From NCBI GenBank assembly GCA_964520905.1, contig CAZFQL010000007.1, forward strand, positions 39,603 through 103,602: a DNA stretch of 64,000 bases. The letters run 5' to 3'. Below the pieces are notes generated by a model. It was not told the origin of the DNA and ran no database searches. It saw only the letters and a list, made by a program, of their open reading frames with translations. This DNA is from an uncultured Chlorobiaceae bacterium (lineage in GTDB: Bacteria; Bacteroidota; Ignavibacteria; UBA10030; SZUA-254). Both the position numbers and the translations under genes were made by a program. Positions 884 through 33,831 of this stretch are shown piece after piece (the first letter of the stretch is position 1; each line of letters starts with the position of its first letter).

Positions 884-3310
884 ATGAAACGTGTAATAAT
901 GTTAAGTTTGTTTGTTGGCATTTTCACTTTTTCACTTTGTGCACAGAGTGGATTTCCAACTTATCACACACAAAACAATTTTTCATTGACCTCGCCCGGT
1001 GCGCTGAAATATGGTCTCTATGGATTTGATAATCCTGCGCTTCTCACATATCTGCATCAACCCGATTTAATGTTTACTTGGTCTGATGCCAGCGGCAAGT
1101 GGAACGACTTCAATCGCTGGGGTTTGTTCACAGCAATACCTCATGTCGGGTTCGGATTGATTCATCAAAAAGAAGGTCAAGATGCTGTTACCGATTATCG
1201 ACTATCGTTTGCACTTGGCAATAGGAGCGCCGGCTTTGGTTTATCATACGGGTGGTCGGGTGGTAATACATCCTTGTTCCAGCGTTCAAAAATAATTTCC
1301 ATTGGCACTCTCATCAGACCCAATGAATATGTTTCAGTTGGCGCTGTTGGTTTAGCCGCATTGAGCGGTGATAGAAAGGAAGCAGTTCTCGATTTAGCCG
1401 CACGACCACTTGGGAATGAGATCGTTACAATCTTCACCGATTATGCAATAGAAAACTATCAATCTATAAAAGACGGTGCCTGGAGCGTTGGTACTGCGGT
1501 AGAGATGATACCCGGAGTCCGAGTTACCGGACGATATTTTGATACCAAAGCTTTTACTATCGGACTTCAATTCAGTTTCGGTAATCTCGGAATCAGCACT
1601 CAATCTTATTACAACGACAAGAGTAAATATGGTTATCAATCATATAGTGTACGTTTAGGAGCGTACGATCGGACGCTGTTTGGGACAAAGATATTTCCTC
1701 AAGAGAAATACCTCGATATGAATCTTCTCGGTCCCATCAAATATCAGCGTTATAAATTTTTCGACAATTCAAACACGCTTGCCTCACTCCTTGAGCAAAT
1801 AAAAGCGGCGAAAGATGATCCAAGTGTACGAGGAATCGCAATCAATACATCAGGAATAATTGGTAATCGGGAAATGTATTGGGAGCTTCGTGAGCAGTTA
1901 AAAGATTTTAAATCTGCTGGGAAGCGGGTAGTGGTGTTTGTTGATCGTCTAAATATAGATGTTTATCATCTCGCATCCATTGCTGATAAAATTGTTATGG
2001 ATCCAACCGGGAGTTTGACGCTTGAAGGTTACATAATGGGTAGAACATATTTAAAAGGAACTCTCGAAAAGTTGGGTATCGGTTTTGATGAGTTGAGATT
2101 TTTTAAATATAAATCGGCGGTTGAGTCGTTCTCGCGCGATAAGATGACGGATGCAGACAGAGAACAGCGCCAGAAGCTTGTCGATGATTATTACAGATTA
2201 GCCAAGACAGAAATATGTGAAGTACGTAAAATTTCTCCTGAAAGATTCGATCAATTTGTCGATGATATCGTTTTCTTCAGTCCCGATTCAGCGATGAAAG
2301 AAGGATTGATCGACACAATTGGAAGATGGGAAAAAGTGAAAGAGGTTGTTAAAAATTTAGAAGGTGAGGATAATTATTTTGTTGGCGCCGGTTCATTGGA
2401 GAAATTTCAGTTACCATTCGATAATCGATGGGGAGAAAAACCGAAGATCGCTATCATCTATGCGCTGGGTGCATGTGCAATGGATGAGGGAATCACTGCA
2501 CGTAATCTTGTTAAAGATGTTGAAGCAGTTACCAACGATACCCGCGTGAAAGCTGTTGTACTTCGTGTCGATTCTCCCGGCGGCGACGGTATGGCATCGG
2601 ATTATATCGCAGAGGCATTGAAGAAATGTAAGGAGCAAAAACCGGTCATAATATCCCAGGGTTATGTGGCGGCTTCAGGCGGTTACTGGCTCTCAATGTA
2701 TGGTGATACGATTGTTGCCGCGCCAAATACGATCACCGGTTCAATTGGAGTAATTGCGGGTTGGGCGTATAACAAAGGATTGAAAGATTCATTAGGGATG
2801 ACAACAGATCATGTGAAAGTCGGTAAACATGCCGATCTGGGATTTGGAATGACGCTGCCGATTATTGGTGTTGGATTACCCGACCGAGATTTCACACCCG
2901 AAGAGCGCTCACGTCTTGAAACAGAAATCAAAACGATGTATAAAGAGTTTGTTTCAAAAGTTGCCTCAGGCAGAAAGAAACAATTTGACGACATTGAGCC
3001 GATTGCTCAGGGCAGAGTCTGGTCTGGTTATGATGGAAAGGAAAATGGGTTAGTTGATGTATTAGGTGGACTTGAAACCGCTATTCAAATAGCAAGGGAA
3101 CGAGCAGGGATTAGTTCAAAAGCTGATGTTGATATCGTAGAGTTGCCTGAGAAAGGTTGGTTCGATATGAGTGGATTCATGCCGAAGCTTCTACCATTTA
3201 GTGTAGAAGATGATCCTGTAATACAGCATCTGAGATTTCGCTTGAAGCATAACGGTCAGCCGATGCCGATTTTGCCGATGGATGAGATCGAAATAAACCA
3301 TAATAAATAA
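884..3310 (+). CDS. sppA: Signal peptide peptidase SppA (S49 family, tandem S49 domains) with an extra N-terminal beta-rich domain
   Basis: 808 aa with an N-terminal signal peptide (MKRVIMLSLFVGIFTFSLCAQ). Two ClpP/crotonase-fold S49 modules: IAINTSGIIGNREMYWELR... and VVLRVDSPGGDGMASDYIAEAL...QGYVAASGGYWLSMYGD...TGSIGVI. The ~270-aa N-terminal extension is G/Y/S-rich and barrel-like. Confidence 0.75.
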   Translation: MKRVIMLSLFVGIFTFSLCAQSGFPTYHTQNNFSLTSPGALKYGLYGFDNPALLTYLHQPDLMFTWSDASGKWNDFNRWGLFTAIPHVGFGLIHQKEGQDAVTDYRLSFALGNRSAGFGLSYGWSGGNTSLFQRSKIISIGTLIRPNEYVSVGAVGLAALSGDRKEAVLDLAARPLGNEIVTIFTDYAIENYQSIKDGAWSVGTAVEMIPGVRVTGRYFDTKAFTIGLQFSFGNLGISTQSYYNDKSKYGYQSYSVRLGAYDRTLFGTKIFPQEKYLDMNLLGPIKYQRYKFFDNSNTLASLLEQIKAAKDDPSVRGIAINTSGIIGNREMYWELREQLKDFKSAGKRVVVFVDRLNIDVYHLASIADKIVMDPTGSLTLEGYIMGRTYLKGTLEKLGIGFDELRFFKYKSAVESFSRDKMTDADREQRQKLVDDYYRLAKTEICEVRKISPERFDQFVDDIVFFSPDSAMKEGLIDTIGRWEKVKEVVKNLEGEDNYFVGAGSLEKFQLPFDNRWGEKPKIAIIYALGACAMDEGITARNLVKDVEAVTNDTRVKAVVLRVDSPGGDGMASDYIAEALKKCKEQKPVIISQGYVAASGGYWLSMYGDTIVAAPNTITGSIGVIAGWAYNKGLKDSLGMTTDHVKVGKHADLGFGMTLPIIGVGLPDRDFTPEERSRLETEIKTMYKEFVSKVASGRKKQFDDIEPIAQGRVWSGYDGKENGLVDVLGGLETAIQIARERAGISSKADVDIVELPEKGWFDMSGFMPKLLPFSVEDDPVIQHLRFRLKHNGQPMPILPMDEIEINHNK

Positions 3311-3478: not shown

Positions 3479-6400
3479 ATGACTTCACAAAAAGAGACAA
3501 TATCGAAACGAAAGCTTATCTTCCGCTACTTGATTCTCACTATCATGACGTTAGCTCTTGCAGGCATTCTCACGACAGAGGTGTGGCTAAACGGTGCCTT
3601 CATCAACTACACACATCTTAAACCGAGGTTCAGTTCTGATTCAATGTGGTTCTCGTGTGACCTTGAAGATATTTTGGAAATACGAAAAATGGGAGGAATC
3701 CCAATCACAGCCATCGATTCGGTTGGAGAAGCCTTTCGCTCTGGATTGAGAGCAGGAGATTTCATCGTAGCAGTCAACGAACAGAAGCTCACCGAAGTAC
3801 CTCAAGCATTCTATCGACCGTTCATTGGTGCACGTGAAGGCGACGAAGTCAGGTACACGTTCATCAGAAATGGCATCACCCGTAATTGCACAATTCCTCT
3901 CGTTGATAATTTTCCAAAACCGAGAGGCTATCTTGGAACATACCGACGTTCACCATCCGATACGACCGGGGGATGGAAACGAGATACGACCTACGGTATT
4001 CGGATCGTAAAGGTTGTAGAAAATGCGCCGGCTGAAGCAGCCGGGCTCCAGGCGGGAGATATCATTGTGGGATTCAATGGCGGCCGTGTAACCAATGAGC
4101 AAGAATTCATGTGGCGCTATGATGCCACGGACGCATACCAAAAGGTGGACATTGAAGTAGTCAGAGAAGGGGTGCGGCAGACACTATACGCATCGTTGGG
4201 AGAGCGGCCTGAATATCGCGTCACTTTATGGAACTACATTATCGAAGGATCTGTTGCCAAGGTTGTTTGGATGCGCACGTTGCCATGGATCCTGTTTTAC
4301 TTTATCTTTCTCATTGTGGGTGCCACAATCGGCTGGTTGCGACCACGAGATGCAACTGCGTTCTTGTGCTCGCTGGTACTACTCGCAAGTGGCTTAGGCG
4401 CCGTACTGACTAATACATACTTTCTGGCGGCGTTGTCATATCAGGTCTTGTCACTCCTTGGTTGCTTCACAGAGACTGCGATCGGATTGGCTCTTCCCTT
4501 GGTACTGCATGCTTTTGCCAGGTTTCCGAACCGTTCACGAGGTGGTGAACGCCTTCTGCGTTGGAGGTGGGTTTTCTATGTGTATTCGTTCCTCTACATA
4601 ATCACGGCTTGTACAAAGTGGTTAACGATTATCCATGGATGGAAAGAAACTTGGCTTATACTGAATCCGGTAGCAAAGATTCTTGGTAATCTGAATGAAT
4701 GGGTCATGTCACCAATTGTTCTTGTGATGGTTGTATTATTTGTTGCGCAACGAATCGAGACACGAAACAAGCCACAATCGAGACTCAAAATAATTGAATT
4801 GGGTTTGATCCTGGCTATCGCGGGAATGAGTCTTTATCTTCTTGCACCACCTGTCTATGACTTCCTTCCAACATCATGGCAAGCCACATACTACTTTGCT
4901 GGATTGATATTTCCCATTATTCTATATACAGCACTCCCACTCGCATTTGCCTACACGATTCTCACCCGAAAAATATTCGATATCCGCTTCATCATCCGCA
5001 AAGGCCTCCGATATATTCTCTTATCAAAAGGCGCTTTGCTTGTTGAAGGCATAATTGTTTTTCTCATTGTCATTCAAATTCTCAGTTATGCCGGGACAGA
5101 GTTTCTTAATACACCCACAGCCGTCGGTGGTGTAGCAGTAGCAAGCACACTAGCGGTAATCGCATTCGTTGGAAGAGTCAATCGTAAGCTCATGCCGGTT
5201 ATTGACCGACGGTTCTTCCGTGAGGTGTTAGATGTAAAACGATTGCTAATGGAATTGAATGAAAAATTATCTGAGATGAGAGAACGTGAGAAGATTCTCC
5301 AACAAACTGCATCAACGGTGTTGAAGGCACTGCATCCTGCAAGAGTTGTGATGCTATTGAAGGAAGGGAAGAGTACAGAATTCAAATCAGTCCTTGCCAT
5401 TGAAAACGAGGAACGCAAATTCCAGCCATTTCATCATTCTAAACTTGGTTCGGAATCTGAACAAGGCAGCGCCCAGACCCTGAAACTAGTTCAGGGTGAC
5501 GCTTTATTGAAAGCAGACTATGCCATCATCAGCCAGATGGAAGAAAAAAAGGGCTGGGCAATTGTATATCCAGAAACACTTGATCTTGAAAAAGATGAGG
5601 ATAAGCGATTATCAGCGGTCAATTGTGAATTGTTAATTGGTTTGCGTGGAAGCTCCGGACTTATTGGAGTTATGGGGCTTGGAGATAAACTCTCCGAGGA
5701 ACCGTATAGCAAAGAAGATAGAGAGCTTCTTCTCACCGTTGCCCATGAGATGGGGATGGCGCTTGAAAATGCAGAGTTACTCGAAGTCGCAAAACGGGAA
5801 GCAGAGTTTTCAAAAGAGTTGGATATCGCTCGACAAGTTCAGCAGAATCTCTTTCCAAAGCAATTGCCAACTCCGTCGGGCTGGGAGTTTGCTGGCATCT
5901 GTAAACCCGCAAAAGCAGTTGGCGGAGATTACTACGACATCTTCGAGCCAGTCCCCGGCAAAGTAGTTGTAGCATTAGGTGATGTATCAGGCAAAGGACT
6001 TGGTGCTTCGTTTGTAATGTCGGGTGTACACAGCACTATCCGAACGCAAGCAAAAAAAATATTTGATAATCCGGTTGAAATAATTGATGAGTTAAACGAA
6101 TATCTAATCGGGTCTACATCTAAGAACATATTCGTTACTTTGTTTTTAGGAATCATCGATCTTGAAACCGGTCGAATGCGATACGTCAATTGCGGGCATC
6201 CACCGGCGTTTGTTGTTCGGAAAGAGAATGGTGAGATAGAGAAACTGACACGCACCGGACTTGCACTCGGCATGATGAACACTGTCCAGTTTACTCAAGG
6301 GTTATCGACATTGAATGTAGGTGATTCGCTCATAGTTTACAGCGATGGCATCACCGAAGCGATGAATTCAACAGAGGAAATGTACGAAGAGGAACGATTG

Positions 6401-6547: not shown

Positions 6548-9303
6548 TTACACCGAGAGAAAATCCATCGCGCTGGACAATGGTGTTCCGGTACACAACC
6601 CTATCAATTTTGACGTTTTATATCTTAATTTGGTTAATAGTGTTTTTTAGTGAACAGGGGTTCGTGACATGCTCTACTGGTATTTCGTTAAGGGGCATTG
6701 AGAAAGAGAAACCCTTCGATTCCCTATCAGTGATTAGGAGTAAAGGATTTGTAATTGTGGAGAAAGTAGATTCCAATAGTATAGCAGAGAAGGCTGGTGT
6801 TTTTATTGGAGATACAATTGTTACGGTTGATGGAACTCAATTAAAAGATAAACCCCAATTGTTTTATAAAATTTGGACGAAATCTCCTTACGGCGACACG
6901 CTGAATATCGGATTAATAAAAAATGGTACGCAGGAGAATCGAGTTCTTGTCCTTGATAAGAAAGAAGGCATTTTATCTTATCTGACTTATAACTTCCAGG
7001 TTCTATTCTGGATTCTCAGCTTCGTTGTTGGTGGACTAATTGGATGGATGAGAACCAGGGACTCTATTGCCTTTCTATGTTCGGTTTTCTTCCTTTGCTT
7101 AGGGTTTAAGGAAGAGGTTTATTATTCATTGCTTCCATACTGGGCGATAGTAATTGTGATTACTTTAAATTCAATTACGGCGGCGATTGGTCTTCCGTTG
7201 GGTTTACGATTATTTTCGATCTTCCCAAATCCATCGCGTTTCGGTAAAGTATTGTGGCGATGGCAATGGGTTGCATTTCTGCTGTTTAGCCTCAACGCGT
7301 TTATACCTTATACTAAAAATCTCAGTGTATTGCTTGAGTGGTCAATTATAATACCATTGACTCAACAGGTGGCTCAAATGTTTGAACCGGTTGGAGCTGC
7401 ATTATTTGTTGCGTTGTTATTACTTATAATACCACTTTACCTTTCACAAAGAAAAGCGACTCGAGATCGTCCCCAGGCTCGACTGAAAATCATTGAGTTC
7501 AGCATTTTATTCTGGGGATTATCTGCATTAGCGGCGTTAGTTTTTGCTCTAATTGGGTCAATGTTACTAAAATCATTGGACGATATTCCCCGTCCGATTT
7601 CAGTGGTTTTATTGACTATTTTTATTTTCCCATTTTTGATCAGCATGCTCGCTATTCCAATCTCGTTTGCATACACAATCCTTACACGTAAAATCTTCGG
7701 TATCCGCTTCATCGTCAGGAAAGGTCTCCGATATCTTCTCCTATCCAAAGGTGCATTGCTTGTAGAAGGTATAATTGTTTTTTTCATCGTCATTCAAATC
7801 CTCAGTTATGCCGGAACAGAGTTTCTCAATTCACCCACCGCTGTAGGCGGTGTAGCAGTTGCAAGCACACTGGCAGTAATCGCAGTCGTCGGGAGAGTCA
7901 ACCGCAAACTCATGCCAGTTATCGATCGGCGATTCTTCCGTGAAGCTTTGGACGTGAGAAAGTTGTTGATGGATTTGAACGAACAATTATCTGAGCTTAG
8001 GGAGCGAGAAAAGATACTTCAGTTGACTGCTTCGACTGTTCTCAAAGCACTCCATCCATTACGAGTAGTGTTCTTGTTGAAAGAAGAAAAAGCAAAGCAT
8101 TTCAGATGTGTTCTCGTGCAGGAACATGAAGCGAAGCAAGCCCCATCTGGAAAGACAAATGGCCTAACCCGTCATTCTGAATTTATTTCAGAATCTCAAT
8201 CCCAGCCACTTGCCAGTGATGAGATGCCGAAACAAGTTCGGCATGACGATGTTAATTATTTGAAGTCAAATGATTCCATCATCCGTCAGTTAGAAGAAAA
8301 GAAATCCTACGTAACAATTTATCCCGAGAAACTCGACCCCGAAGTTGAAGGAGACAAACGATTACTCGATCTCAACTGTGAACTCTTCATCGGAGTTCAA
8401 GGAAGCGCAGGGCTCGTTGGCATCATGGCACTTGGCGGAAAACTCTCCGAAGAGCCATTCAGCAAAGAAGATCGAGATTTACTAACGACAGTTGCCCGAC
8501 AAATGGGACTTTCGCTGGAGAATGCAGAACTGTTGGAGGTTGCTAAGCGAGAAGCTGAGCAATCACGAGACCTGGAGATTGCGAGATCAGTACAACAAAA
8601 CCTTTTCCCAAAACAACTGCCGGTTGTTGCGGGCTGGGAATTTGCCGGCATCTGCAATCCGGCAAAAGCAGTCGGTGGAGATTACTACGATATCTTCGAA
8701 GCAGTGCCTGGGAAAGTAGTTGTGGCATTAGGTGATGTGTCGGGTAAAGGACTTGGGGCATCGTTCGTTATGTCGGGTGTTCACAGCACGATTCGAACGA
8801 ATGCAGAAAAATCATTCGACAATCCCGTCGGACTAATCAATGAGTTGAATAAATACCTTCTTGGATCGACATCGAAGAACATATTCGTTACTTTGTTTTT
8901 GGGAATCATCGATCTTGAAAGCGGTCGAATGCAATATGTCAATTGTGGCCACCCACCGGCGTTTGTTGTTCGGAAAGAGAATGGTGAAATAGAGAAGCTC
9001 ACACGCACCGGACTTGCACTCGGTATGATGAATACCATTCAGTTTACTCAAGGATCATCGACATTGAAAGCGGGTGATTCACTCATTGTCTACAGCGATG
9101 GTATCACTGAGGCGATGAATGAGAAAGAAGAATTTTTCGATGAAGAGCGTTTGGTGAAGGTTGTGAATACAGCATCGAAGTTGGAAGCTGCTTCAATGAT
9201 GGAAGAGATAATGAAATCGGTTAATAAGTTTGCAGGTACGCACGAGCAAGCTGACGATATTTCGGTTATTATTGCTCAACGACAGAAATCCATTTCTTCA
9301 TGA
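6544..9303 (+). CDS. Membrane sensor phosphatase, paralog 2 (PDZ–polytopic TM–GAF–PP2C)
   Basis: 919 aa. N-terminal TM, one PDZ (IAEKAGVFIGDTIVTVDG), polytopic TM region, then GAF/PP2C. The C-terminal ~400 aa are near-identical to the other paralogs. Confidence 0.8.
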   Translation: MITPRENPSRWTMVFRYTTLSILTFYILIWLIVFFSEQGFVTCSTGISLRGIEKEKPFDSLSVIRSKGFVIVEKVDSNSIAEKAGVFIGDTIVTVDGTQLKDKPQLFYKIWTKSPYGDTLNIGLIKNGTQENRVLVLDKKEGILSYLTYNFQVLFWILSFVVGGLIGWMRTRDSIAFLCSVFFLCLGFKEEVYYSLLPYWAIVIVITLNSITAAIGLPLGLRLFSIFPNPSRFGKVLWRWQWVAFLLFSLNAFIPYTKNLSVLLEWSIIIPLTQQVAQMFEPVGAALFVALLLLIIPLYLSQRKATRDRPQARLKIIEFSILFWGLSALAALVFALIGSMLLKSLDDIPRPISVVLLTIFIFPFLISMLAIPISFAYTILTRKIFGIRFIVRKGLRYLLLSKGALLVEGIIVFFIVIQILSYAGTEFLNSPTAVGGVAVASTLAVIAVVGRVNRKLMPVIDRRFFREALDVRKLLMDLNEQLSELREREKILQLTASTVLKALHPLRVVFLLKEEKAKHFRCVLVQEHEAKQAPSGKTNGLTRHSEFISESQSQPLASDEMPKQVRHDDVNYLKSNDSIIRQLEEKKSYVTIYPEKLDPEVEGDKRLLDLNCELFIGVQGSAGLVGIMALGGKLSEEPFSKEDRDLLTTVARQMGLSLENAELLEVAKREAEQSRDLEIARSVQQNLFPKQLPVVAGWEFAGICNPAKAVGGDYYDIFEAVPGKVVVALGDVSGKGLGASFVMSGVHSTIRTNAEKSFDNPVGLINELNKYLLGSTSKNIFVTLFLGIIDLESGRMQYVNCGHPPAFVVRKENGEIEKLTRTGLALGMMNTIQFTQGSSTLKAGDSLIVYSDGITEAMNEKEEFFDEERLVKVVNTASKLEAASMMEEIMKSVNKFAGTHEQADDISVIIAQRQKSISS

Positions 9304-10825: not shown

Positions 10826-13531
10826 ATGCCACCGTTAACACAAAACCCATCGCGCTGGACAATGGTGTTTCGGTACGCCAGTCTTACGTTGCTGATGATC
10901 TACCTCACCAGCATGATCGTTTTTGTGTTCTGGATTGGAGGATTCAGCATGGGCAGGACAGGAATGAGGTTGGATAAAGACACGGTCGGAGTCTATGGCG
11001 TGCGGCAGTTGGTTCGAGAAAAGGGTGGTTTCACTATCATCAAGATTGATTCCGCAGGTGTCGCAGCAAAAGCGGGCATGCGAGTCGGAGATAAAATCAC
11101 AGCCGTGAATGGAGTTGAATTAAAGGATGATCCAACTGTGTATGATCGGGCAATAGTGCACGGAGAGATGCTCGTACAGGTGGCCGGTAATAAGGGTGAG
11201 ATGGAAGTATACCTAAACCTCCCTGTGAACGTAGTAATAGGGATTCCCTTGCTCACCGCCCTTGTTTCCTTATTTTTCTTAAGCGGATTATTGATCGGCT
11301 GGTTACGGCCGGCGGATAAGACTGCGTTCAACTGTTCGATCTTTCTCCTTGCATTCGCTGCAGGGTTGTGTGATGATTTTATCAAGTACTTACCACAGTG
11401 GGCGTGGGCTATCGCTATGTTATATTCCATGATCACCGAGGCACTGGTACCTCCCATGGCTATGCGGCTGTTTTCTGTTTTTCCGAATCCCTCACGATTA
11501 GGCAGATTCCTATCGAAATGGCAATGGACCTTCTTCCTGATCGCGGGTTTCATTGCCATGGTCGACTACGGAGGTAGATTTGCAGAATTGTATGAGTGGC
11601 AGTTTATCAGCCAAAGTAGGGAACTGCTTGATAGTTTTTACGGATACCTGACAGTTGTCTTCATCGTTACTGTGTGCTCACTCGGCATTGCTCTCTATTT
11701 CGCCCAGCGGATTGAGACGCGGGGTCGACCACATTCGCGTATCAAGGTGATAGAGCTTGGCTTTCTTTCATCACTGACTGCGATTTTGGTTCCGGTAGTA
11801 ATATATGCCGTCATTTACCTCTTTCAAGTCTCGATAGAACTAGAAGGAGTGTGGATTATCATTCTTATACTCTTGTTCTTTATTGCCCTCTCTGGAATTC
11901 CGGTCTCATTCGCTTACGCTATACTCTCGAGCAAGATATTCGGCATCCGCTTCATCCTCCGTAAAGGTCTCCAATATCTTTTCCTATCCAAAGGTGCGTT
12001 AGTTATCGAAGGCATAATCTTCTTCTTAATTCTGTATCAGATTATCAGTCATGGTGGAACTGCATTGGCAAGCTCACCAATGCTTGTGAGCGGCATCTCG
12101 TTTGGACTGGGAATCTTAGGAGTATTTACACTAAACCGAGTCAACCGCAAGCTCATGCCCGTCATCGATCGCCGCTTCTTTCGTGAAGTGTTAGATGTGA
12201 GAAAATTACTATTGGATTTGAATCAACAATTATCAGCTATCCGAGAGCGAGAACAGATACTTCAGCAAACAGCTAATACGGTTCTCAGAGCACTTCATCC
12301 AGCAAGAGTTGTGATGTTCTTGAAACATGGGAAATCTGATGAGCTCAGATGTGAATTAACACTTGAGAATGAACGAGCGAAGCCAACAACGCACAGCCCA
12401 ACCCGTCATCCTGAACTTGTTTCAGGATCTGAACCAAGCTCAGCCCAGATGCTGAACCCAGTTCAGCATGACGCGGGAATTGGTGGGATGTTGAAAACCG
12501 ATGATGCCATCATCAATCAAATGGAAGAAAAGAAAGGTTGGGTAATCGTTAACAGAGAAACACTTGATCTTGAAAAGGATGAAGATCAGCGATTATCAGC
12601 GGTCAATTGTGAATTGTTAATTGCCATTCGTGGAAGTTCAGGGCTTGTTGGTATTATGGGACTTGGCGGGAAACTCTCAGAAGAGCCATACAGCAAAGAA
12701 GATCGAGATTTACTAACGACAGTTGCCCGACAAATGGGACTTTCGCTGGAGAATGCAGAACTGTTGGAGGTTGCTAAGCGAGAAGCCGAGCAATCACGAG
12801 ACCTGGAGATTGCGAGATCAGTTCAACAAAACCTTTTTCCAAAACAACTGCCGGTTGTTGCGGGCTGGGAGTTTGCCGGCATCTGCAAACCAGCAAAAGC
12901 AGTCGGTGGAGATTACTACGATATCTTCGAAGCAGTGCGTGGGAAAGTAGTTGTAGCATTAGGCGATGTATCAGGTAAAGGACTCGGGGCTTCGTTTGTC
13001 ATGTCTGGAGTTCATAGCACGATTCGAACAAACGCAGAAAAATCAATCGATAATCCCGTTGTGCTAATCAATGAGTTGAATAAATATCTTCTAGGTTCAA
13101 CATCGAAGAACATTTTCGTCACTTTATTTTTGGGAATCATTGATCTTGAAACCGGCTTGATGAAATATGTCAATTGTGGACATCCACCTGCGTTTGTTGT
13201 TCGGAAAGAGAATGGTGAATTTGAAAAGCTCACCCGCACCGGACTTGCACTTGGTATGATGAACACCGTCCAGTTTACTCAAGGTTCATCAACATTGAAA
13301 GTAGGTGATTCTCTCATCGTCTACAGCGATGGCATCACCGAAGCGATGAATGAGAAAGAGGAAATGTACGAAGAGGAACGATTAACTCAGCTGCTCACTA
13401 CAACTCTTGGATTGGATACCTCACACATGATGGAAGCGATACTGAAATCAGTGAGTGAATTTATTGGACAAGCGGAACAGTCGGATGATGTGTCAATGAT
13501 TTTAGCGCGGAGAACAGAGGAGATATCATGA
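10826..13531 (+). CDS. Membrane sensor phosphatase, paralog 3 (PDZ–polytopic TM–GAF–PP2C)
   Basis: Start reassigned to ATG 10826 (MPPLTQNPSRWTMVFRY...), which aligns with the N-termini of paralogs 2 and 5. The track ORF from 10661 overlaps the TPR gene with a low-complexity extension. PDZ motif VAAKAGMRVGDKITAVNG. GAF/PP2C C-terminus conserved. Confidence 0.75.
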   Translation: MPPLTQNPSRWTMVFRYASLTLLMIYLTSMIVFVFWIGGFSMGRTGMRLDKDTVGVYGVRQLVREKGGFTIIKIDSAGVAAKAGMRVGDKITAVNGVELKDDPTVYDRAIVHGEMLVQVAGNKGEMEVYLNLPVNVVIGIPLLTALVSLFFLSGLLIGWLRPADKTAFNCSIFLLAFAAGLCDDFIKYLPQWAWAIAMLYSMITEALVPPMAMRLFSVFPNPSRLGRFLSKWQWTFFLIAGFIAMVDYGGRFAELYEWQFISQSRELLDSFYGYLTVVFIVTVCSLGIALYFAQRIETRGRPHSRIKVIELGFLSSLTAILVPVVIYAVIYLFQVSIELEGVWIIILILLFFIALSGIPVSFAYAILSSKIFGIRFILRKGLQYLFLSKGALVIEGIIFFLILYQIISHGGTALASSPMLVSGISFGLGILGVFTLNRVNRKLMPVIDRRFFREVLDVRKLLLDLNQQLSAIREREQILQQTANTVLRALHPARVVMFLKHGKSDELRCELTLENERAKPTTHSPTRHPELVSGSEPSSAQMLNPVQHDAGIGGMLKTDDAIINQMEEKKGWVIVNRETLDLEKDEDQRLSAVNCELLIAIRGSSGLVGIMGLGGKLSEEPYSKEDRDLLTTVARQMGLSLENAELLEVAKREAEQSRDLEIARSVQQNLFPKQLPVVAGWEFAGICKPAKAVGGDYYDIFEAVRGKVVVALGDVSGKGLGASFVMSGVHSTIRTNAEKSIDNPVVLINELNKYLLGSTSKNIFVTLFLGIIDLETGLMKYVNCGHPPAFVVRKENGEFEKLTRTGLALGMMNTVQFTQGSSTLKVGDSLIVYSDGITEAMNEKEEMYEEERLTQLLTTTLGLDTSHMMEAILKSVSEFIGQAEQSDDVSMILARRTEEIS

Positions 13532-16410
13532 ATTCTTCAATAGATACCATATCGAAACGAACACTTGTATTTCGTTGCTCATTAGTTGCATTGCTAACGG
13601 TAATTCTTACCTTCATTGTTATTCATTGGATTTGGTCACTCGATGCTTTCCCTAAGTTCTTAAGTAATCAGAGTGCGTTAGGTTTAAATTACATCCGAAG
13701 TCCTGGTGATACTTCAATGCTGTTTGGGAACATTTATGAGATTAATTCAATACGGAAAAATGGTGGTTTGACCGTTGCTTCTGATATTGATTCATCCGTT
13801 CTAGCTTTTCAGTGGGGAATTAGACCGGGTGACAAGATTACCGCAATTAATGGAATATCGCTTCAAGAAAATCCAAAAGTATTTTATCGCGCATTCTCTA
13901 AAAAAGCCAAGGGCCAAAAATTAGAAATTAAATTCATCCGCGATGGTATCGTCTCACAAATCGAGAGTTCTTTTGCAATTCCTGATTCTTTAATGAAGTG
14001 GGGTGGACAGGGGTCATGGGCATTTTCAGTTGGAAATGTCAAAGGTGTCTATACATTCGATACGTTCAGATTAGTTGCTGATACTCCCTACCTTTTTCTC
14101 TCTATTCTCCTATTGCTCGTTGGTTGTATTATTGGTTTGTTGAAACCGAGTAATTCGGTCGCATTTCAAATCTCCATTCTTTTTCTCCTCTTAGGATGTA
14201 TGGCGAATAGTATGCAATTTGATTGGTTCCGCCTTAGTGCAATTTTGCCTGCCTGGTTATTGATAACTACATTTGCTGCTTTCGCGCTTGCTCATGGAAT
14301 CGGTATACCTCTGTTATTGCGTGTTCTCTCAGTGTTTCCAAATCCGACAAGACTGGGAAGATTATTTCTCCGATTTCAGTGGATAGCCTTCATCTTTTTT
14401 CTTACTCCCGCAATTATCGAATTCTCACCAAAATTAGTTAACCTGCTCGGATTGGACATAAATTTGTTCGATTCAATCTTCATAGAGTGGGTACACAAAT
14501 TCGATAATTGGCTCTTGTTATTTGCCTTAATTGTAGGTTTGGCGTTACTCATCTCTCAACATATTGAAACGCGGCATAGACATGAATACCGGCTTAAAAT
14601 TATAGAATTCTCTTTTCTTATTGGTTTGCTTGGCGTTGTCTTATATTATGTTGCCCTTTATGTATTTAGTAGAGCCAACATAAGTCTGTCCCAAAATATG
14701 GCAAACATCATTGTTGTATTATGGAATTTCACGCCCACACTCGCTGTTGGTACTATACCGCTCGCTGTAACGTACACCATAATAACCCGTAAGATATTTG
14801 ACATTAAGTTCATCATCCGCAAAGGTCTGCAATACCTGCTTTTATCCAAAGGAGCGTTGGTCATAGAAGGCATCATCGTCTTCCTGGTCGTTTTTCAAGT
14901 CATCACGCACGGAGGAGAGAACATCGCAGGTTCACCATTTGCTGTGAGTAGTTTGTCAGTAGGAAGTACATTAGCGGTCATCTTTGTTCTTGGGAAAGTC
15001 AATCGCAAAGTCATGCCCGCCATTGATCGGCGTTTCTTCCGTGAAGTGTTGGATGTGAGAAAATTACTTTTGGATTTGAATCAACAAATATCAGCTATCC
15101 GAGAGCAGGAGGAGATACTTCAGCAAACAGCTAATACCATTCTTAGGACACTCCATCCGGCAAGAGTTGTGATGTTCTTGAAACATGGGAAGTCTGATGA
15201 GTTCAGATGTGAATTGACACTTGAAAATGAACGAGCGAAGCCAACCCAACCACGTCATGCTGAACTCGTTTCAGCATCCATACCAAGCAACGTTCAGATC
15301 CCGAACCACCTGCCCGCCGCTTCGCTTATGCAGGCGGGAGTTCGGAATGACGGCTTAGTGAGTGGGATGCTCAAGACTGATGATACCATTATCAAACAGT
15401 TGGAAGAAAAAAAAGGCTGGGTAATCGTCTATCCAGAAACACTTGATCTTGAAAAGGATGAGGATCAGCGATTATCAGCGGTCAATTGTGAATTGTTGAT
15501 TGGCTTGCGTGGAAGCTCGGGACTGATAGGAGTAATGGGCCTCGGAGATAAACTCTCGGAAGAACCATACAGCAAAGAAGATCGAGAGCTTTTGCTTACC
15601 GTTGCCCATGAGATGGGGATGGCACTTGAAAATGCGGAGTTGCTCGAAGTCGCGAAACGAGAAGCAGAATTTTCAAAAGAACTGGATATCGCTCGACAAG
15701 TTCAGCAGAATCTCTTTCCAAAGCAATTGCCAACGCCATCGGGGTGGGAGTTTGCCGGCATCTGTAAACCAGCCAAAGCAGTCGGTGGAGATTATTACGA
15801 CATCTTCGAGGCGGTACCGGGGAAAGTGGTTATTGCATTGGGTGATGTATCGGGTAAAGGACTTGGGGCCTCGTTTGTTATGTCGGGTGTTCACAGCACG
15901 ATTCGAACAAACGCAGAAAAGTCAATCGACAATCCCGTCGGGCTAATCAATGAGTTGAATAAATATCTGCTCGAATCGACATCGAAGAACATATTTGTTA
16001 CTTTGTTTTTTGGAATCATCGATCTTGAAACAGGAAAACTCTGCTACGTTAATTGCGGGCATCCACCAGTGTTAGTTGTTCGGAAAGTGAATGGTGAAAT
16101 AGAGAAGCTCACACGCACCGGACTTGCACTCGGTATGATGAACACCGTTCAGTTTACTCAAGGGACATCGACATTGAAAGCAGGTGATTCGCTCATTGTT
16201 TACAGCGATGGCATAACCGAAGCGATGAATGAAAAGAATGAGGAGTATGAGGAAGAAAAATTGATTAAATTGCTCAATGAAGGAATAGGATTAGATACTT
16301 CTCAAATGATGGAAGAAATACTGAAATCGGTAAGTGATTTTATCGGGCAAGCGGAGCAGTCGGATGATGTGTCGATCATTTTAACACGAAGGAAATTGGA
16401 GACAGGATGA
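13528..16410 (+). CDS. Membrane sensor phosphatase, paralog 4 (PDZ–polytopic TM–GAF–PP2C)
   Basis: 960 aa. ATGA start/stop overlap with paralog 3. Divergent N-terminal periplasmic/TM region (PDZ-like GIRPGDKITAINGISL). Conserved C-terminal GAF+PP2C. Confidence 0.8.
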   Translation: MNSSIDTISKRTLVFRCSLVALLTVILTFIVIHWIWSLDAFPKFLSNQSALGLNYIRSPGDTSMLFGNIYEINSIRKNGGLTVASDIDSSVLAFQWGIRPGDKITAINGISLQENPKVFYRAFSKKAKGQKLEIKFIRDGIVSQIESSFAIPDSLMKWGGQGSWAFSVGNVKGVYTFDTFRLVADTPYLFLSILLLLVGCIIGLLKPSNSVAFQISILFLLLGCMANSMQFDWFRLSAILPAWLLITTFAAFALAHGIGIPLLLRVLSVFPNPTRLGRLFLRFQWIAFIFFLTPAIIEFSPKLVNLLGLDINLFDSIFIEWVHKFDNWLLLFALIVGLALLISQHIETRHRHEYRLKIIEFSFLIGLLGVVLYYVALYVFSRANISLSQNMANIIVVLWNFTPTLAVGTIPLAVTYTIITRKIFDIKFIIRKGLQYLLLSKGALVIEGIIVFLVVFQVITHGGENIAGSPFAVSSLSVGSTLAVIFVLGKVNRKVMPAIDRRFFREVLDVRKLLLDLNQQISAIREQEEILQQTANTILRTLHPARVVMFLKHGKSDEFRCELTLENERAKPTQPRHAELVSASIPSNVQIPNHLPAASLMQAGVRNDGLVSGMLKTDDTIIKQLEEKKGWVIVYPETLDLEKDEDQRLSAVNCELLIGLRGSSGLIGVMGLGDKLSEEPYSKEDRELLLTVAHEMGMALENAELLEVAKREAEFSKELDIARQVQQNLFPKQLPTPSGWEFAGICKPAKAVGGDYYDIFEAVPGKVVIALGDVSGKGLGASFVMSGVHSTIRTNAEKSIDNPVGLINELNKYLLESTSKNIFVTLFFGIIDLETGKLCYVNCGHPPVLVVRKVNGEIEKLTRTGLALGMMNTVQFTQGTSTLKAGDSLIVYSDGITEAMNEKNEEYEEEKLIKLLNEGIGLDTSQMMEEILKSVSDFIGQAEQSDDVSIILTRRKLETG

Positions 16411-19121
16411 TACCATCGAAAGACACCCCATCACCCCGTACAATGGCGTTTCGTTACGCCAGTCTTACGTTGCTGACGATCTACCTCACCAGTATGATCG
16501 TTTTCGTAATCTGGATTGGAGGAGTCACTACTGGGTCTCCGGGGATGAGGTTGGATAAAGACACGGTCGGAGTCTATGGCGTGCGGAAGTTGATTCGAGA
16601 AAACGGTGGTTTCACTATCATCAAGGTTGATTCAGCAAGAGTCGCAGCGAAAGCCGGGCTTAGAGTCGGTGACAAGATCGTAGCCGTGGATAGTGTGGAG
16701 ATCAAGGAAGATCCAAGAATATACGATCTGGTATTGGCGCGGGCTAAGATGCAAGTGCGAGTGGAAAGGAGTGGACACACTGAGGAAGTTGCTCTGGTCA
16801 TGGAGGATAATTATTTGGAAATCGGAGTTTTCCTCCTGCCTGTTTTCTTCATTGTTGGGGCATTGATTGGCTGGCTCCGACTGGGCAATTCAGCTGCATT
16901 CGAATGTGCGATCTTTTTCCAATGCATCGCCGCCGCGTCGTGCGATGTATGTTTTCAATATTTACCCGATTGGGGATTAGTCATCGGAACGATTTATTCC
17001 ATGACAAGCAAAGCTCTGTGGTTGCCTATGGGTGTGAGAGTATTCTCCGTCTTTCCGAATCCTTCACGGTTCGGTAGGTTTTTGTGGAAATGGCAATGGA
17101 TCTTCTTTCTTGTCCCCGGTCTGCTTGCGCTGATTAATTATACTGATAACTTCGCCCGCCTGTTCGGATGGCAGGCAGTCATCCAGATTATTGACCCGCT
17201 GAACAGATTTGCCGGAAACGGATACGTCATCTTTGTGGGTGTTGTTTGTGTGCTCGGAATCGCTTTGTTCGTTTCACAGCGTAAAGAGACACGCGACAGT
17301 CCGCAAACAAGGATAAAAGTGATCGAGTTCGGGTTTCTTACATCCGCGATAGCATTTGGCATGTGCCTCGTTGGAATTGCAATCTTTCTTATCTCTGGTT
17401 TGTCGACCCCTATTAGTGATGACAGTGGAGTCATTGTGAAGGTTATGTTTCTCACCATGATGCTCGGCTTAATTGTTGGGCTCTTTGCTATTCCGTTCTC
17501 CTTTGCATACGCTCTACTTGCGAGTAAGATATTCGGCATTAAGTTCATCGTTCGGAAAGGTCTGCAATATCTCTTCTTATCCAAAGGTGCGTTAGTCATA
17601 GAAGGTATTATTCTCTTTTTAATTCTGTATCAAATTATCAGTCATGGTGGAACTACATGGGCAAGCTCACCAATGCTCGTAAGCGGATTATCGTTTGGAC
17701 TTGGAATCTTAGGAGTATTTACACTAAACCGAGTCAACCGTAAACTCATGCCTGCCATCGACCGACGGTTCTTCCGCGAAGCGTTGGACGTGAGAAAGTT
17801 GTTAATGGATTTGAACGAACAATTATCTGAGTTACGGGAACGAGAAAAGATACTTCAGTTGACTGCTTCGACTGTTCTCAAAGCACTCCATCCAGCCAGA
17901 GTGATGATGCTATTGAAACATGGAAAGTCTGATGAATTCAGATGTGAATTAACAATTGAAGATAAGCGAGTGAAACTTACTCAACCAGAGCAATCCAGTC
18001 CTACCCGTCATGCTGAACTCGTTTCAGCATCTATACAAAGCAACGTTCAGATCCCGAACCGAGTTCGGGATGACGCTGGGGGCGGGTTTGTATTGAAAGC
18101 TGAGGATTCCATCATCAAACAGTTGGAAGAAAAGAAGGGTTGGGCAATCGTCTATCCCGAAAAACTCAACCCCGAAGTTGAAGGAGACAAACGATTACTC
18201 GATCTTGACTGCGAACTTTTCATCGCAATTCAAGGAAGCGCAGGACTCGTTGGTATCATGGCACTTGGCGGAAAACTCTCAGAAGAGCCATTCAGCAAAG
18301 AAGATCGAGATTTACTAACGACAGTTACCCGACAAATGGGACTTTCGCTGGAGAATGCAGAACTGTTGGAGGTTGCTAAGCGAGAAGCCGAGCAATCACG
18401 AGACCTGGAGATTGCGAGATCAGTACAACAAAACCTCTTTCCAAAACAACTGCCGGTTGTTGCGGGCTGGGAGTTTGCCGGCATCTGTAATCCAGCAAAA
18501 GCTGTTGGCGGTGATTACTACGATATCTTCGAGGCAGTCCCCGGAAAAGTAGTTGTAGCGTTAGGGGATGTGTCGGGTAAAGGACTTGGTGCTTCGTTTG
18601 TAATGTCGGGTGTGCATGGCTCTATCCGCACTCGTGTTACTTCATGTATTAATGAACCTTTAAAATTAATCGAAGAGCTTAATGCTTACCTTTTATCATC
18701 AACAGCTAAAAATATCTTTGTCACTCTTTTCTTCGGTATCATAGACCTTGAAACAGGAAAACTCAGCTACGTTAATTGTGGGCATCCACCTGCAATTGTG
18801 ATTCGACAAGAAGGGAATCAACAAGAACGGCTTACGCGAAACGGACCCGGACTTAGCATGATTGCCGGCGCTCGTTTCACTCAAGGAGGATGCCTATTAC
18901 AGAATGGCGATACAATTGTAATTTACAGTGATGGTGTAACTGAAGCAAAGAATAACCAGGAGGAAATGTATGAGGAAGAACGATTATCCGAATTATTGAA
19001 CAATGCATCGGGATTAGAAGCCACGGCAATTATGGACAAAATACTGAAGTCAGTTGATAGATTTGCTTTAGGAGCTGAACAAGCGGATGATATCTCGGTG
19101 ATTGTGGTAAGGAGATGCTGA
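16407..19121 (+). CDS. Membrane sensor phosphatase, paralog 5 (PDZ–polytopic TM–GAF–PP2C)
   Basis: 904 aa. ATGA overlap with paralog 4. The N-terminus resembles paralog 3 (RTMAFRYASLTLLTIYLTSMIVFV). The PP2C domain is the most divergent of the five (GIRTRVTSCINEPL...AIVIRQEGNQQERLTRNGPGLSMIAG). Confidence 0.8.
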   Translation: MIPSKDTPSPRTMAFRYASLTLLTIYLTSMIVFVIWIGGVTTGSPGMRLDKDTVGVYGVRKLIRENGGFTIIKVDSARVAAKAGLRVGDKIVAVDSVEIKEDPRIYDLVLARAKMQVRVERSGHTEEVALVMEDNYLEIGVFLLPVFFIVGALIGWLRLGNSAAFECAIFFQCIAAASCDVCFQYLPDWGLVIGTIYSMTSKALWLPMGVRVFSVFPNPSRFGRFLWKWQWIFFLVPGLLALINYTDNFARLFGWQAVIQIIDPLNRFAGNGYVIFVGVVCVLGIALFVSQRKETRDSPQTRIKVIEFGFLTSAIAFGMCLVGIAIFLISGLSTPISDDSGVIVKVMFLTMMLGLIVGLFAIPFSFAYALLASKIFGIKFIVRKGLQYLFLSKGALVIEGIILFLILYQIISHGGTTWASSPMLVSGLSFGLGILGVFTLNRVNRKLMPAIDRRFFREALDVRKLLMDLNEQLSELREREKILQLTASTVLKALHPARVMMLLKHGKSDEFRCELTIEDKRVKLTQPEQSSPTRHAELVSASIQSNVQIPNRVRDDAGGGFVLKAEDSIIKQLEEKKGWAIVYPEKLNPEVEGDKRLLDLDCELFIAIQGSAGLVGIMALGGKLSEEPFSKEDRDLLTTVTRQMGLSLENAELLEVAKREAEQSRDLEIARSVQQNLFPKQLPVVAGWEFAGICNPAKAVGGDYYDIFEAVPGKVVVALGDVSGKGLGASFVMSGVHGSIRTRVTSCINEPLKLIEELNAYLLSSTAKNIFVTLFFGIIDLETGKLSYVNCGHPPAIVIRQEGNQQERLTRNGPGLSMIAGARFTQGGCLLQNGDTIVIYSDGVTEAKNNQEEMYEEERLSELLNNASGLEATAIMDKILKSVDRFALGAEQADDISVIVVRRC

Positions 19122-19400
19122 TTGTGTCGCTCCTCTGGAGCTTTCCTGCTTTATTGACTTGTGCTACAAACATTTCGCTCCTACGGAGCTAATAACAAAA
19201 TATTTTTACTACATGAGTCCCGTAGGGACGAAACGTATATAGAAATAATAAACGAAATATATTAAGCTCCGTCAGTCCAAAGGACTCCTTTGAAGGAGCG
19301 AGACAAAATAGGAAATATGATTTCAGCTTGTGCTATAAATGTTGCGCTCCTACGGAGCTTTCATTCGATGATGATTTATAGGAGTCCCGTAGGGACGAGA
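19122..19400. repeat. Cluster of REP-like GC-stem hairpins upstream of the RAYT gene
   Basis: Repeated units: GCTCC-TCT-GGAGC (19128-19140); CGCTCC-TAC-GGAGCT (19176-19190 and 19345-19359); GAGTCCC-GTA-GGGACGA (19215-19231 and 19382-19398); AAGCTCCGTCAGTCCAAAGGACTCCTTTGAAGGAGCGA (19264-19301). All are short perfect palindromes. The loops carry GTAG/CTAC. Confidence 0.7.
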
Positions 19401-19468
19401 TGTTTATAGTATAGTATAAAAAAATAATCAAGCTCCATTAGATGCGAAACCATATAAGGATTGATTCT

Positions 19469-19942
19469 ATGGCAAACACATACACACAAATATACATACA
19501 TATTGTTTTTTCTGTACATGGTCGCCAGAGTCTGATTAAAACGGAATGGAAAGAACGATTGCATAAATATCTCACTGGGATCGTTAAGAACGAGAAGCAA
19601 AAGTTAATTGTGATAAATAGTATGCCCGACCATATTCATCTTCTCATTGGTATGAAACCAGATATTGCCCTATCGGATTTGATACGAGATATTAAGTCAA
19701 ATTCATCGAAGTTTATCAACGAACAACGGCTAACGCGAGGAAGATTCAATTGGCAAGAAGGATTCGGTGCTTTTTCAAATTCCCACTCACAATTGGATAC
19801 AGTGATACGATATATTCAGAATCAAGAACGACATCATGCTAAGAAAACATTCCGTCAAGAATATTTAGAGATGCTGAAGAAATTCACAATAGATTATAAC
19901 GATAAATATGTCTTCGAATGGATTGAAGGAACAAATGATTAA
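19469..19942 (+). mobile_element. IS200/IS605-family Y1 (HUH) transposase, REP-associated tyrosine transposase (RAYT/TnpA_REP)-like
   Basis: ~157 aa from ATG 19469 (MANTYTQIYIHIVFSVHGRQSLI...); an alternative upstream start lies at 19442. HUH motif MPDHIHLLIG. Size and motif order are typical of IS200 TnpA/RAYT. Flanked on both sides by REP-like hairpin clusters. No TnpB gene. Confidence 0.75.
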
Positions 19943-20150
19943 TTGTGCCGCTCCTCTGGAGCTTTTTCCTCTGATTTGGTTGGTTCTATCGACATCTCGC
20001 TCCTACGGAGCTGTTATGCGATGATAATAAAGTACCGTTCGGGACGAAATGTTTTGAGCCAAAGGCTCATGCACCTCTGGCGCAATAGAAAAATAATAGA
20101 AGATAAAATAAGCTCCGTCAGTCCAAAGGACTCCTTTGGAGGAGCGAAAC
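19941..20150. repeat. Second cluster of the same REP-like hairpins downstream of the RAYT gene
   Basis: ATTGTGCCGCTCCTCTGGAGCTTT (19942-19965), CGCTCCTACGGAGCT (19998-20012), the variant TACCGTTCGGGACGAAA (~20033-20047), and AAGCTCCGTCAGTCCAAAGGACTCCTTTGGAGGAGCGA (20110-20147). These are the same unit types as in 19122-19400. Confidence 0.7.
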
Positions 20151-20244
20151 TTACATCCTAAATCATAAATCTTATTTCCTGAATCTTCCATCATCAATCC
20201 TACATCCTTGTATCAATCTCTCTATTTGGTTATATTAAATCACC

Positions 20245-33718: not shown

Positions 33719-33831
33719 CAGACCTCACCCGTAGCCCTCTCCTACGAGGAGAGGGCGTTATTGCCTACGCTAATACGAGTGCAGAGCTATTTCATCCTCT
33801 CCTTTTAGGAGAGGATTATAGGTGAGGTCTG
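33719..33831. repeat. Compound palindromic element (REP-like/MITE-like) in the intergenic region
   Basis: Outer inverted repeat CAGACCTCACC (33719-33729) / GGTGAGGTCTG (33821-33831). It encloses two perfect hairpins: CCCTCTCC-tacga-GGAGAGGG (33735-33755) and CCTCTCC-tttta-GGAGAGG (33796-33814). The CTCC-TAC-G..GGAG core resembles the REP units around the RAYT gene. Confidence 0.5.

Follow-up and report, generated by a model that had tools for sequence, protein, structure and literature searches.

What kind of system is a lone IS200-like transposase gene that lies between two clusters of short hairpins? Such a gene, tnpA, occurs in the 64-kb stretch of contig CAZFQL010000007.1 analysed here (hereafter the window). 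The source organism is a member of the Ignavibacteriales, so that the lineage is a non-proteobacterial one, as the first-pass annotation of the sequence had supposed. That annotation read the locus as the classic organisation of a REP-associated tyrosine transposase (RAYT) with its repetitive extragenic palindromes (REPs), similar to the bacterial interspersed mosaic elements (BIMEs). The repeats are indeed cognate ones in a REPtron- or BIME-like arrangement and accompany the gene in 74 of 80 relatives, but the protein is not a canonical RAYT. On balance, we favour, with somewhat more confidence than doubt, a REPtron-like locus built around an IS200-related enzyme, in which the gene stands at the junction of mirror-image cognate modules.

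The tnpA gene is an intact open reading frame (ORF) of 157 codons, with its start at the ATG at 19469 rather than 19472, and the product matches Pfam PF01797 (Y1_Tnp) at 99 bits, which agrees with its initial description as an IS200-like HUH transposase. As also described, tnpB is missing: none is adjacent to tnpA, which lies between a gene of the SpoIIE/PP2C type and one for an MsbA-like ABC transporter. Hairpin clusters at 19122-19451 and 19943-20151 bracket tnpA and are absent elsewhere in the window. In the flanks (19122-19468 and 19943-20151), four kinds of small perfect hairpins follow one another in the order H1-H2-H3-H4 on both sides of the gene. H1 is CGCTCC-TCT-GGAGC, H2 is CTAYAAAYAT-NN-CGCTCC-TAC-GGAGC, and H3 is GTCCC-GTA-GGGAC followed by G-NNN-YGT-NT-ATAG. 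H4 is GCTCC-loop-GGAGC, with a loop that is short in some copies and in others (the long form) contains a nested GTCC-AAA-GGAC hairpin.

The palindrome clusters first reported on both sides, in the same order, are far from what chance would give. All five GCTCC-N3-GGAGC palindromes of the window are at the tnpA locus (0.03 expected), and so are both long nested H4 hairpins (none expected) and both occurrences of GTCCCGTAGGGAC. H2 and H3, each taken with its tail, are reverse complements of each other, and so are H1 and H4, so that each H1-H2-H3-H4 unit forms one large imperfect palindrome. The single-stranded DNA (ssDNA) folds of the units have z = -4.45 (upstream unit a) and z = -3.36 (downstream unit c), and the 5' end of H1a pairs with the 3' end of H4a.

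The protein has the HUH histidines at H55 and H57, the W motif WQ at residues 95-96 and the catalytic tyrosine Y115 in YIQNQERHH. Its motifs PDHIH, NWQEG and YIQNQERHH are followed by a conserved C-terminal tail; in the alignment of relatives (A1) the motif positions are invariant, as are the C-terminal residues F128, E131, L136, Y143, Y147 and F149. The NCBIfam model NF033573 (IS200/IS605) scored 78.7 bits, above its cutoff of 55, whereas NF047646 (REP-associated tyrosine transposase) scored 39.5 bits, below its cutoff of 80. The PDB matches at E <= 1 were confined to the TnpA proteins of ISDra2, IS608 and Sulfolobus (2xm3, 2f4f, 2a6m), and the structure of E. coli TnpA_REP was not among them. 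The check for RAYT-specific motifs suggested in the first-pass annotation came out negative, as the protein reads YIQNQERHH instead of the RAYT tyrosine motif Y---NP. The subclass 1.1 motifs W[TS] and Y[IV]ENQ are absent too, their places being taken by WQ and YIQNQERHH.

Meanwhile, the motifs fit TnpA_Y1 subclass 1.2. In Table 1 of Quentin et al. 2018 (PMC6006769) this subclass is given as DH[IV]H, WQ and YIKNQKEHH, that is, Y---Q--HH, with the entry 'REP: no'. Its members have about 148 aa, end in a conserved domain of about 30 aa and are low in copy number, which agrees with the findings here (157 aa, conserved C-terminal tail, single-copy in the data examined). By its motif signature, the window protein fits subclass 1.2 and is not a canonical RAYT. 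The same study places subclass 1.2 near IS200 yet without the properties of an insertion sequence (IS), with a mean of 1.7 copies per genome and only 36% identity between copies of one genome, and gives Cyanobacteria and Bacteroidetes as its taxonomic range. The REP search of PMC6006769 looked for GTAG or GTGG located 0-2 nt from a fully paired stem of 7-20 bp, and its supplement lists no subclass-1.2 repeats. The window hairpins do not have this form, which explains how a motif-based REP search could miss such repeats. In Bertels et al. 2017 (PMC5581495), a 'RAYT-like IS200 Group 3' is described whose members are never duplicated or plasmid-borne and have abundant 16-mers in their flanks (about 21 occurrences). 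This group may be the same as subclass 1.2, and its flanking 16-mers may be an earlier hint of the repeats of that subclass.

The gene is present once in the window, and the protein is encoded at one place in the searched collection. The family is large and strongly conserved, with 7749 proteins found, many of them 66-74% identical to the window TnpA and originating from KSB1, Bacteroidota, Poribacteria and Syntrophorhabdaceae. The dN/dS values of tnpA were 0.12, 0.04 and 0.08 in comparison with the relatives' loci L213, L005 and L002, respectively. The gene is under purifying selection.

The repeated element is a module of about 70 nt, a half-unit consisting of an inner hairpin of 5-8 bp, a spacer of 20-30 nt, the tail CTAYAAAYAT-NN and an outer hairpin of 5-8 bp. 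A module in this orientation is called F-type, and its mirror image R-type. The matches of the covariance model R1 in the window are all at the tnpA locus, with E-values of 1e-12 to 7e-6 for the strongest. The GTAG/CTAC strings had been taken for a guide of the REP type. They are not placed as such: GTA and TAC make up the hairpin loop, no GT[AG]G stands at the 5' foot, and the conserved CTAY tail lies about 10 nt from the foot.

A degenerate 26-mer of the H2 core, CTNYNNAYRTNNCGCTCCTACGGAGC, was used for an exact scan of one genome per GTDB species, for which we calculated about 2 matches by chance. At least 120 stretches matched, spanning Ignavibacteria, Bacteroidota, Chlorobi, Acidobacteriota, Verrucomicrobiota, Desulfobacterota, Calditrichia, Poribacteria and others. 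Complete genomes were among the sources of matches (OY760937.1, OY970256.1, CP096135.1, CP065003.1, OY969418.1). Among the matches listed, only about 11 of the 120 stretches had a tnpA homologue and about 90% were without one, as judged within the fetched stretch of 8 kb or less; several genomes gave three to four separate contigs with the 26-mer; and the copies avoided ORFs, 36% lying inside long open frames compared with 86% of random positions. The module is therefore dispersed in many non-proteobacterial genomes, in stretches without tnpA.

Because of the variable spacing, a position-wise consensus around the 26-mer was uninformative, and a MAFFT alignment of 137 copies was used. Its consensus upstream of H2 reads ..ATGTTTATAG (~20) AGCTCC.TAGGAGCG.CATGT. 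AACATG.CGCTCCTACGGAGCTTG (~18) CTATAAACAT..CGCTCCTACGGAGCT, and no conservation was seen downstream of H2. Among 136 dispersed copies, the inner hairpin was present in 74%, an adjoining R-type hairpin in 35% and the full R+F palindrome in 27%. In the R+F pairs without tnpA between them, the halves are 4-14 nt apart. The tnpA flanks of the locus L182 have CACTCC/GGAGTG stems, and the same variant and spacers recur in three intergenic R+F pairs of that 8-kb stretch, at distances from tnpA of about 270 nt (downstream) for one pair and 1.6-2 kb for the other two. A Blastocatellia stretch without tnpA (L042) contains three R+F pairs in 8 kb, with locus-specific stems. The hairpin core sequence was not found in the text of the literature searched.

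Arrays of different kinds were also seen. In Chitinophaga vietnamensis (L030, 6517-6700), the tail and outer hairpin alone form a tight tandem array with a 50-nt period, while whole modules form long arrays in L095, L055 and L005. Short contigs with P0003 are almost wholly module arrays.

The association of the modules with tnpA was followed in relatives. A protein-profile scan of metagenome contigs yielded 574 of them, and the best 80 loci, chosen by the protein alone (TnpA 57-70% identical to that of the window), were used. A strict regular expression (tail plus perfect stem) gave 2.0 matches per kb within 400 nt of tnpA compared with 0.085 per kb beyond, and it was positive at 39 of the 80 loci. 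The strict expression understated the association because, as visual reading and the covariance model revealed, the remaining loci have variant stems (ATCCC/GGGAT, CGACCCC/GGGGTCG, GATGCC/GGCATC, CACTCC/GGAGTG) in the shared architecture, together with the same CTATAAAC/GTTTATAG tail. R1 was positive at 74 of the 80 loci; since 27 of the 80 had supplied seeds, the independent positives are 47 of 53.

The modules are also oriented with respect to the gene. The closest upstream R1 match lies on the minus strand at 55 loci and on the plus strand at 8, whereas the closest downstream match lies on the plus strand at 45 and on the minus strand at 15. The arrays alternate in orientation like BIMEs (-+ 57, +- 37), but the pair that encloses tnpA is -+ at 34 loci and +- at 3, and the window gene stands at the very point where R and F meet. 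The R half, tnpA and F half are packed with gaps of about 26 and 13 nt, and the distance from the tnpA stop codon to H1 is 0-6 nt in many loci. In an alignment of 35 downstream half-units (A2), core pairs covary (GC:21/AU:13, UA:25/CG:9, CG:29/UA:6), the tail is invariant, and 96 cells are changed on both sides compared with 43 in shuffles. No covariation of the CTAY tail with the bases beside the hairpin foot, in the manner of an IS608-style guide/cleavage pair, was seen by eye in A2. These results indicate that the association between the module and tnpA is general across relatives.

Close relatives allowed the turnover of the locus to be followed. In L213 (TnpA 96% identical), the gene occupies the same site as in the window. 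The two differ by a clean 166-nt indel that comprises H4a-long, H2b and H3b, is missing in L213 and has the 7-nt direct repeat AAGCTCC at its boundaries. Between the two, identity is only 63% in the H1c-H2c-H3c module, whereas it reaches 98.5-98.6% in the adjoining non-coding flanks (19122-19263 and 20046-20244). In L005 (TnpA 89% identical), tandem arrays enclose the gene from either side, and the contig ends consist of repeats. Taken together, the indel, the 63% module and the L005 arrays indicate that the modules turn over faster than their surroundings; the indel could equally be explained by slippage between H4 copies. As a separate observation, the nucleotide identity of window and L213 is 95.1% in tnpA (dS 0.17) and 90.2% at the 3' end of the SpoIIE-like gene, so that parts of the repeats are more conserved than the adjoining coding DNA, while the H1c-H2c module is so much less. 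The short hairpin H4b, decayed in the window, is undecayed in L213 (GCTCC-ATTA-GGAGC).

In the REPtron-like interpretation, a dimeric TnpA would bind the hairpins in ssDNA, for example at replication forks, as do the TnpA proteins of IS608 and ISDra2 and the TnpA_REP of E. coli and Marinomonas. By the same analogy, the enzyme would read the shape of the hairpin and not the sequence of its stem, and the invariant CTA-containing tail would be the cleavage or guide site. Cutting and rejoining of DNA by TnpA would let modules be copied, lost or exchanged, while the gene itself would rarely move; the R+F pairs without tnpA would be a REPtron minus the gene. Whichever strand is read, an R half precedes tnpA and an F half follows it, never the reverse F...R order (LE-like, then RE-like, for left and right end, as in IS608), so that by this reasoning the gene looks non-mobilisable in the IS608 style. 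The same argument would allow mobilisation of that kind for F+R units, of which 19122-19305 is an example. More broadly, we put at about even the chance that subclass-1.2 Y1 enzymes are the cognate enzymes of a multi-phylum REP-like family with a two-hairpin module and an invariant CTAYAAAC tail, including at least part of the orphan RNA motif Acido-Lenti-1.

Several observations weigh against the REPtron-like reading. The R1 and motif scans found no module outside the tnpA locus in the window, and the sampled background density is low: all 6 R1 matches located more than 1.5 kb from tnpA, in 187 kb, come from one locus, L182. The paired percentages of A2 are partly circular, since the seeds were picked as perfect hairpins. 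TnpA identities of 55-74% across phyla fit horizontal transfer as well as constraint, and tnpA with its two half-units is as tightly packed as an IS200-sized element. Finally, L210 has 92.7% nucleotide identity over 11.9 kb downstream (the ABC transporter protein is 98% identical) and yet its SpoIIE and ABC genes are only 58 nt apart, without any module match; L211, with flanks 79% identical in protein, is likewise without the locus. It follows that the locus came or went as one block within this genus, a behaviour also compatible with a mobile IS.

These points lead to the main rival, an autonomous IS200-sized IS of about 650 nt, made of the R half, tnpA and the F half, with the two-hairpin inverted ends as its termini. 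Pairs without tnpA would then be MITE-like (miniature inverted-repeat transposable element) deletion derivatives mobilised in trans, and the window would hold an IS in an array of them. We consider this unlikely, though a serious contender. The compact and conserved R-tnpA-F packing speaks for it, as do the R+F pairs whose halves, 4-14 nt apart, resemble an ORF-deleted element, the absence of the locus in L210 and L211, the NCBIfam IS200 score above cutoff and the patchy cross-phylum distribution. It is at odds with a protein that is single-copy wherever this can be judged, with the low copy number, divergent same-genome copies and lack of IS properties published for subclass 1.2, and with the absence of duplicates and plasmid-borne members in Group 3, if the two groups are equivalent. 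The ends are mirrored and not direct on one strand like those of IS608. Nor could a clean empty-site junction be called in comparison with L210, because the sequences are unalignable from the SpoIIE stop to about 19 nt before the ABC start. In L002 (TnpA 81% identical), tnpA lies in a collinear neighbourhood (S49 peptidase ... tnpA ... thioredoxin-DsbH, UPF0164 onward) despite neighbours only 35-67% identical. It should be noted that this collinearity was considered as proof of vertical inheritance and lost weight as such, since the closer relatives L210 and L211 are without the locus.

A second rival is that the hairpins act mainly as RNA or for the host, as terminators, mRNA stabilisers or small RNAs (sRNAs) such as Acido-Lenti-1, with tnpA being an IS that targets them or is loosely linked. 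The modules start right past stop codons, two hairpins have T-rich runs after them and were scored as terminator-like, and the copies are mostly intergenic. In addition, L042 has two Acido-Lenti-1 matches, at 2389-2433 (-) and 2528-2572 (+), with 37.9 and 43.3 bits compared with the gathering score of 37, and their 3' hairpins are the inner hairpins of the two half-units of an R+F pair. All the same, we find this explanation improbable. The mirrored orientation around tnpA and the alternating arrays fit a palindrome at the DNA level and not a strand-specific RNA, and tnpA occupies the R|F junction 34 times but the F|R junction 3 times, though both junctions are common in arrays (57 and 37). 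Stems of 5 bp are weak for terminators. No Rfam family was found for the window modules, where Acido-Lenti-1 gave a partial match of 13.7 bits and the scan of the locus at E <= 5 was otherwise noise, or for the modules of 20 further tnpA loci, none of which matched Acido-Lenti-1, so that this motif is not a general marker of such loci.

The weakest rival, a canonical class-2 RAYT (TnpA_REP) with classic GTAG-footed REPs, is highly improbable: JGI labels many homologues 'REP element-mobilizing transposase RayT' (a generic COG1943 name) and GTAG/CTAC strings do occur in the flanking palindromes, but the motif and hidden Markov model (HMM) tests and the PDB matches rule it out, GTA/TAC is a loop rather than a 5' foot, and the stems have 5-8 bp compared with the 7-20 bp of the REP definition in PMC6006769.

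Table 1. Features of the tnpA locus and its upstream neighbourhood in the window (two dots or hyphen, first to last position).
Feature	Position	Strand	Remarks
SpoIIE/PP2C paralogue regions	4937-6399, 7655-9152, 11939-13384, 14809-16295, 17544-19111
F-type half-unit a	19123..19191	+	R1 62 bits, E 1e-12; exact motif matches
H1a, GCTCC-TCT-GGAGC	19129-19141		within F-type half-unit a, spacer after it
Tail of half-unit a, CTACAAACAT	19164-19173
H2a, GCTCC-TAC-GGAGC	19177-19189
R-type half-unit a (mirror of F)	19215..19305	-	R1 42 bits, E 3e-8; comprises H3a and H4a
H3a, GTCCC-GTA-GGGAC	19217-19229		tail ..CGTATATAG to 19242
166-nt module segment (H4a-long, H2b, H3b)	19264..19429	+	pairwise alignment with L213
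H4a, long form, GCTCC[GTCA GTCC-AAA-GGAC TCCTTTGAA]GGAGC	19266-19299
H2b with tail	19333-19358		R1 match 19278-19360 (+), 32 bits
H3b	19384-19396		tail to 19409; R1 match 19382-19451 (-), 41 bits
Decayed short H4b, GCTCC-ATTA-GATGC, then tnpA leader and ribosome-binding region	19430..19468	+
tnpA, Y1 HUH single-strand-DNA transposase-like	19469..19942	+	157 aa
F-type half-unit c	19944..20013	+	R1 58 bits, E 6e-12
H1c	19950-19962
Tail of half-unit c, CTATCGACAT	19986-19995
H2c	19999-20011
H3c remnant	~20032-20045
Decayed R-type half-unit c	20056..20151	-	R1 12 bits, E 0.24 (weak); comprises the H3c remnant, the local hairpin TGAGCC-AAA-GGCTCA and H4c
H4c, long form	20112-20145		exact long-hairpin match

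Half-unit a starts 1 nt past the TGA stop of the upstream SpoIIE-like gene, and half-unit c starts 1 nt past the TAA stop of tnpA. An identical string opens both full units right at the stop codon, TGA-TTGTGTCGCTCC in the SpoIIE-like gene (19119-19134) and TAA-TTGTGCCGCTCC in tnpA (19940-19955), and the L005 unit itself has TAAT(C/T)GT ahead of H1. The stop codons at the unit starts may be supplied by the repeat or constrained by it. Further upstream, the single SpoIIE/PP2C-type gene of L210 aligns to five tandem regions of the window (Table 1) with 68-88% nucleotide identity, so that an expanded array of paralogues lies just upstream of the tnpA locus.

The palindrome core was also said to recur at 33719-33831, as a sign of dispersal. 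This 113-nt element is a strongly structured palindrome with an 11-bp closing stem, CAGACCTCACC/GGTGAGGTCTG, around two hairpins of 8-10 bp, CCCTCTCC-TACGA-GGAGAGGG and TCCTCTCC-TTTTA-GGAGAGGA (ssDNA fold z = -7.3). It was rejected as a dispersed copy of the module: the architecture is different, it has no CTAYAAAC tail and no R1 match, and it is missing from the syntenic intergenic spacer of L002. Being unrelated to the tnpA modules, it gives no evidence of their dispersal and could represent a small mobile or REP-like element in its own right.

Compared with known systems, the locus resembles the IS200/IS605 elements (IS200, IS608, ISDra2; subclass 1.1) in its best HMM and PDB matches, its enzyme of about 150 aa, the IS200-sized package with hairpins adjoining the gene and, as in IS200 itself, the lack of tnpB. 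It differs from them in the W motif (WQ instead of W[TS]), the tyrosine motif with its added HH, the conserved C-terminal tail, the mirrored hairpin ends, the gene that is single-copy in the data examined and the many modules without tnpA. Palindrome-associated transposable elements (PATEs), MITE-like derivatives of IS200/IS605, are short non-autonomous elements formed from the two hairpin ends of a Y1 element. Unlike in PATEs, the presumed parent gene here is single-copy in the data examined, and one end mirrors the other.

Acido-Lenti-1 (RF01687; Weinberg et al. 2010, PMC2864571) is an orphan candidate sRNA whose 3' half, CUA-N8-CG-hairpin-CU, has the same layout as the module tail and hairpin; unlike in the module, its first hairpin abuts CUA with no spacer. 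This orphan 'sRNA' may belong to the module repeat system, which may thus explain an orphan Rfam motif. In practice, metagenome assemblies break at the modules, which can also be taken for sRNAs or terminators.

The HuH, W and Y motifs, the length, the low copy number and the non-IS behaviour are shared with subclass 1.2 (PMC6006769), which may be the same as Group 3 (PMC5581495). The published subclass 1.2 differs in its entry 'REP: no', as modules are present here, and in its range, which here covers at least 8 phyla. REPtrons as such are familiar, but the literature consulted describes no REPtron-like system for subclass 1.2, and the reference classification gives none. If our interpretation is right, a REPtron lineage arose inside the IS200 class, which would mean either repeated domestication of Y1 transposases or an intermediate position of subclass 1.2 between IS200 and RAYTs. 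The enzyme would then be the likely partner of many unannotated intergenic hairpin repeats in Ignavibacteria, Bacteroidota, Acidobacteriota, Verrucomicrobiota and other phyla.

The closest parallel in lifestyle is with the REPtrons themselves (TnpA_REP/RAYT with REP, BIME and REPIN; E. coli, Pseudomonas, Stenotrophomonas, Marinomonas). Both have a Y1 HUH gene, here single-copy in the data examined, between inverted GC-rich palindromes, the same palindromes elsewhere (here seen in other genomes), mostly intergenic and in alternating arrays, and a gene that behaves as a host gene under purifying selection. The window protein, however, is of class 1 (IS200-like) and not class 2; the module has two hairpins, about 70 nt and a CTAYAAAYAT tail, with a conserved CTAY about 10 nt from the hairpin foot in place of GT[AG]G at the foot. 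Its sequence is conserved from one phylum to another, while REPs have been described as specific to their species, and the copy number of the module appears low compared with usually more than 100 per genome for REP, BIME and REPIN. REP/RAYT is the textbook case of a domesticated bacterial transposase, known almost entirely from class-2 enzymes of Proteobacteria. An IS200-class enzyme with the same lifestyle and a differently built, cross-phylum repeat would offer a second, independent system for hairpin recognition and cleavage-site choice by Y1 enzymes.

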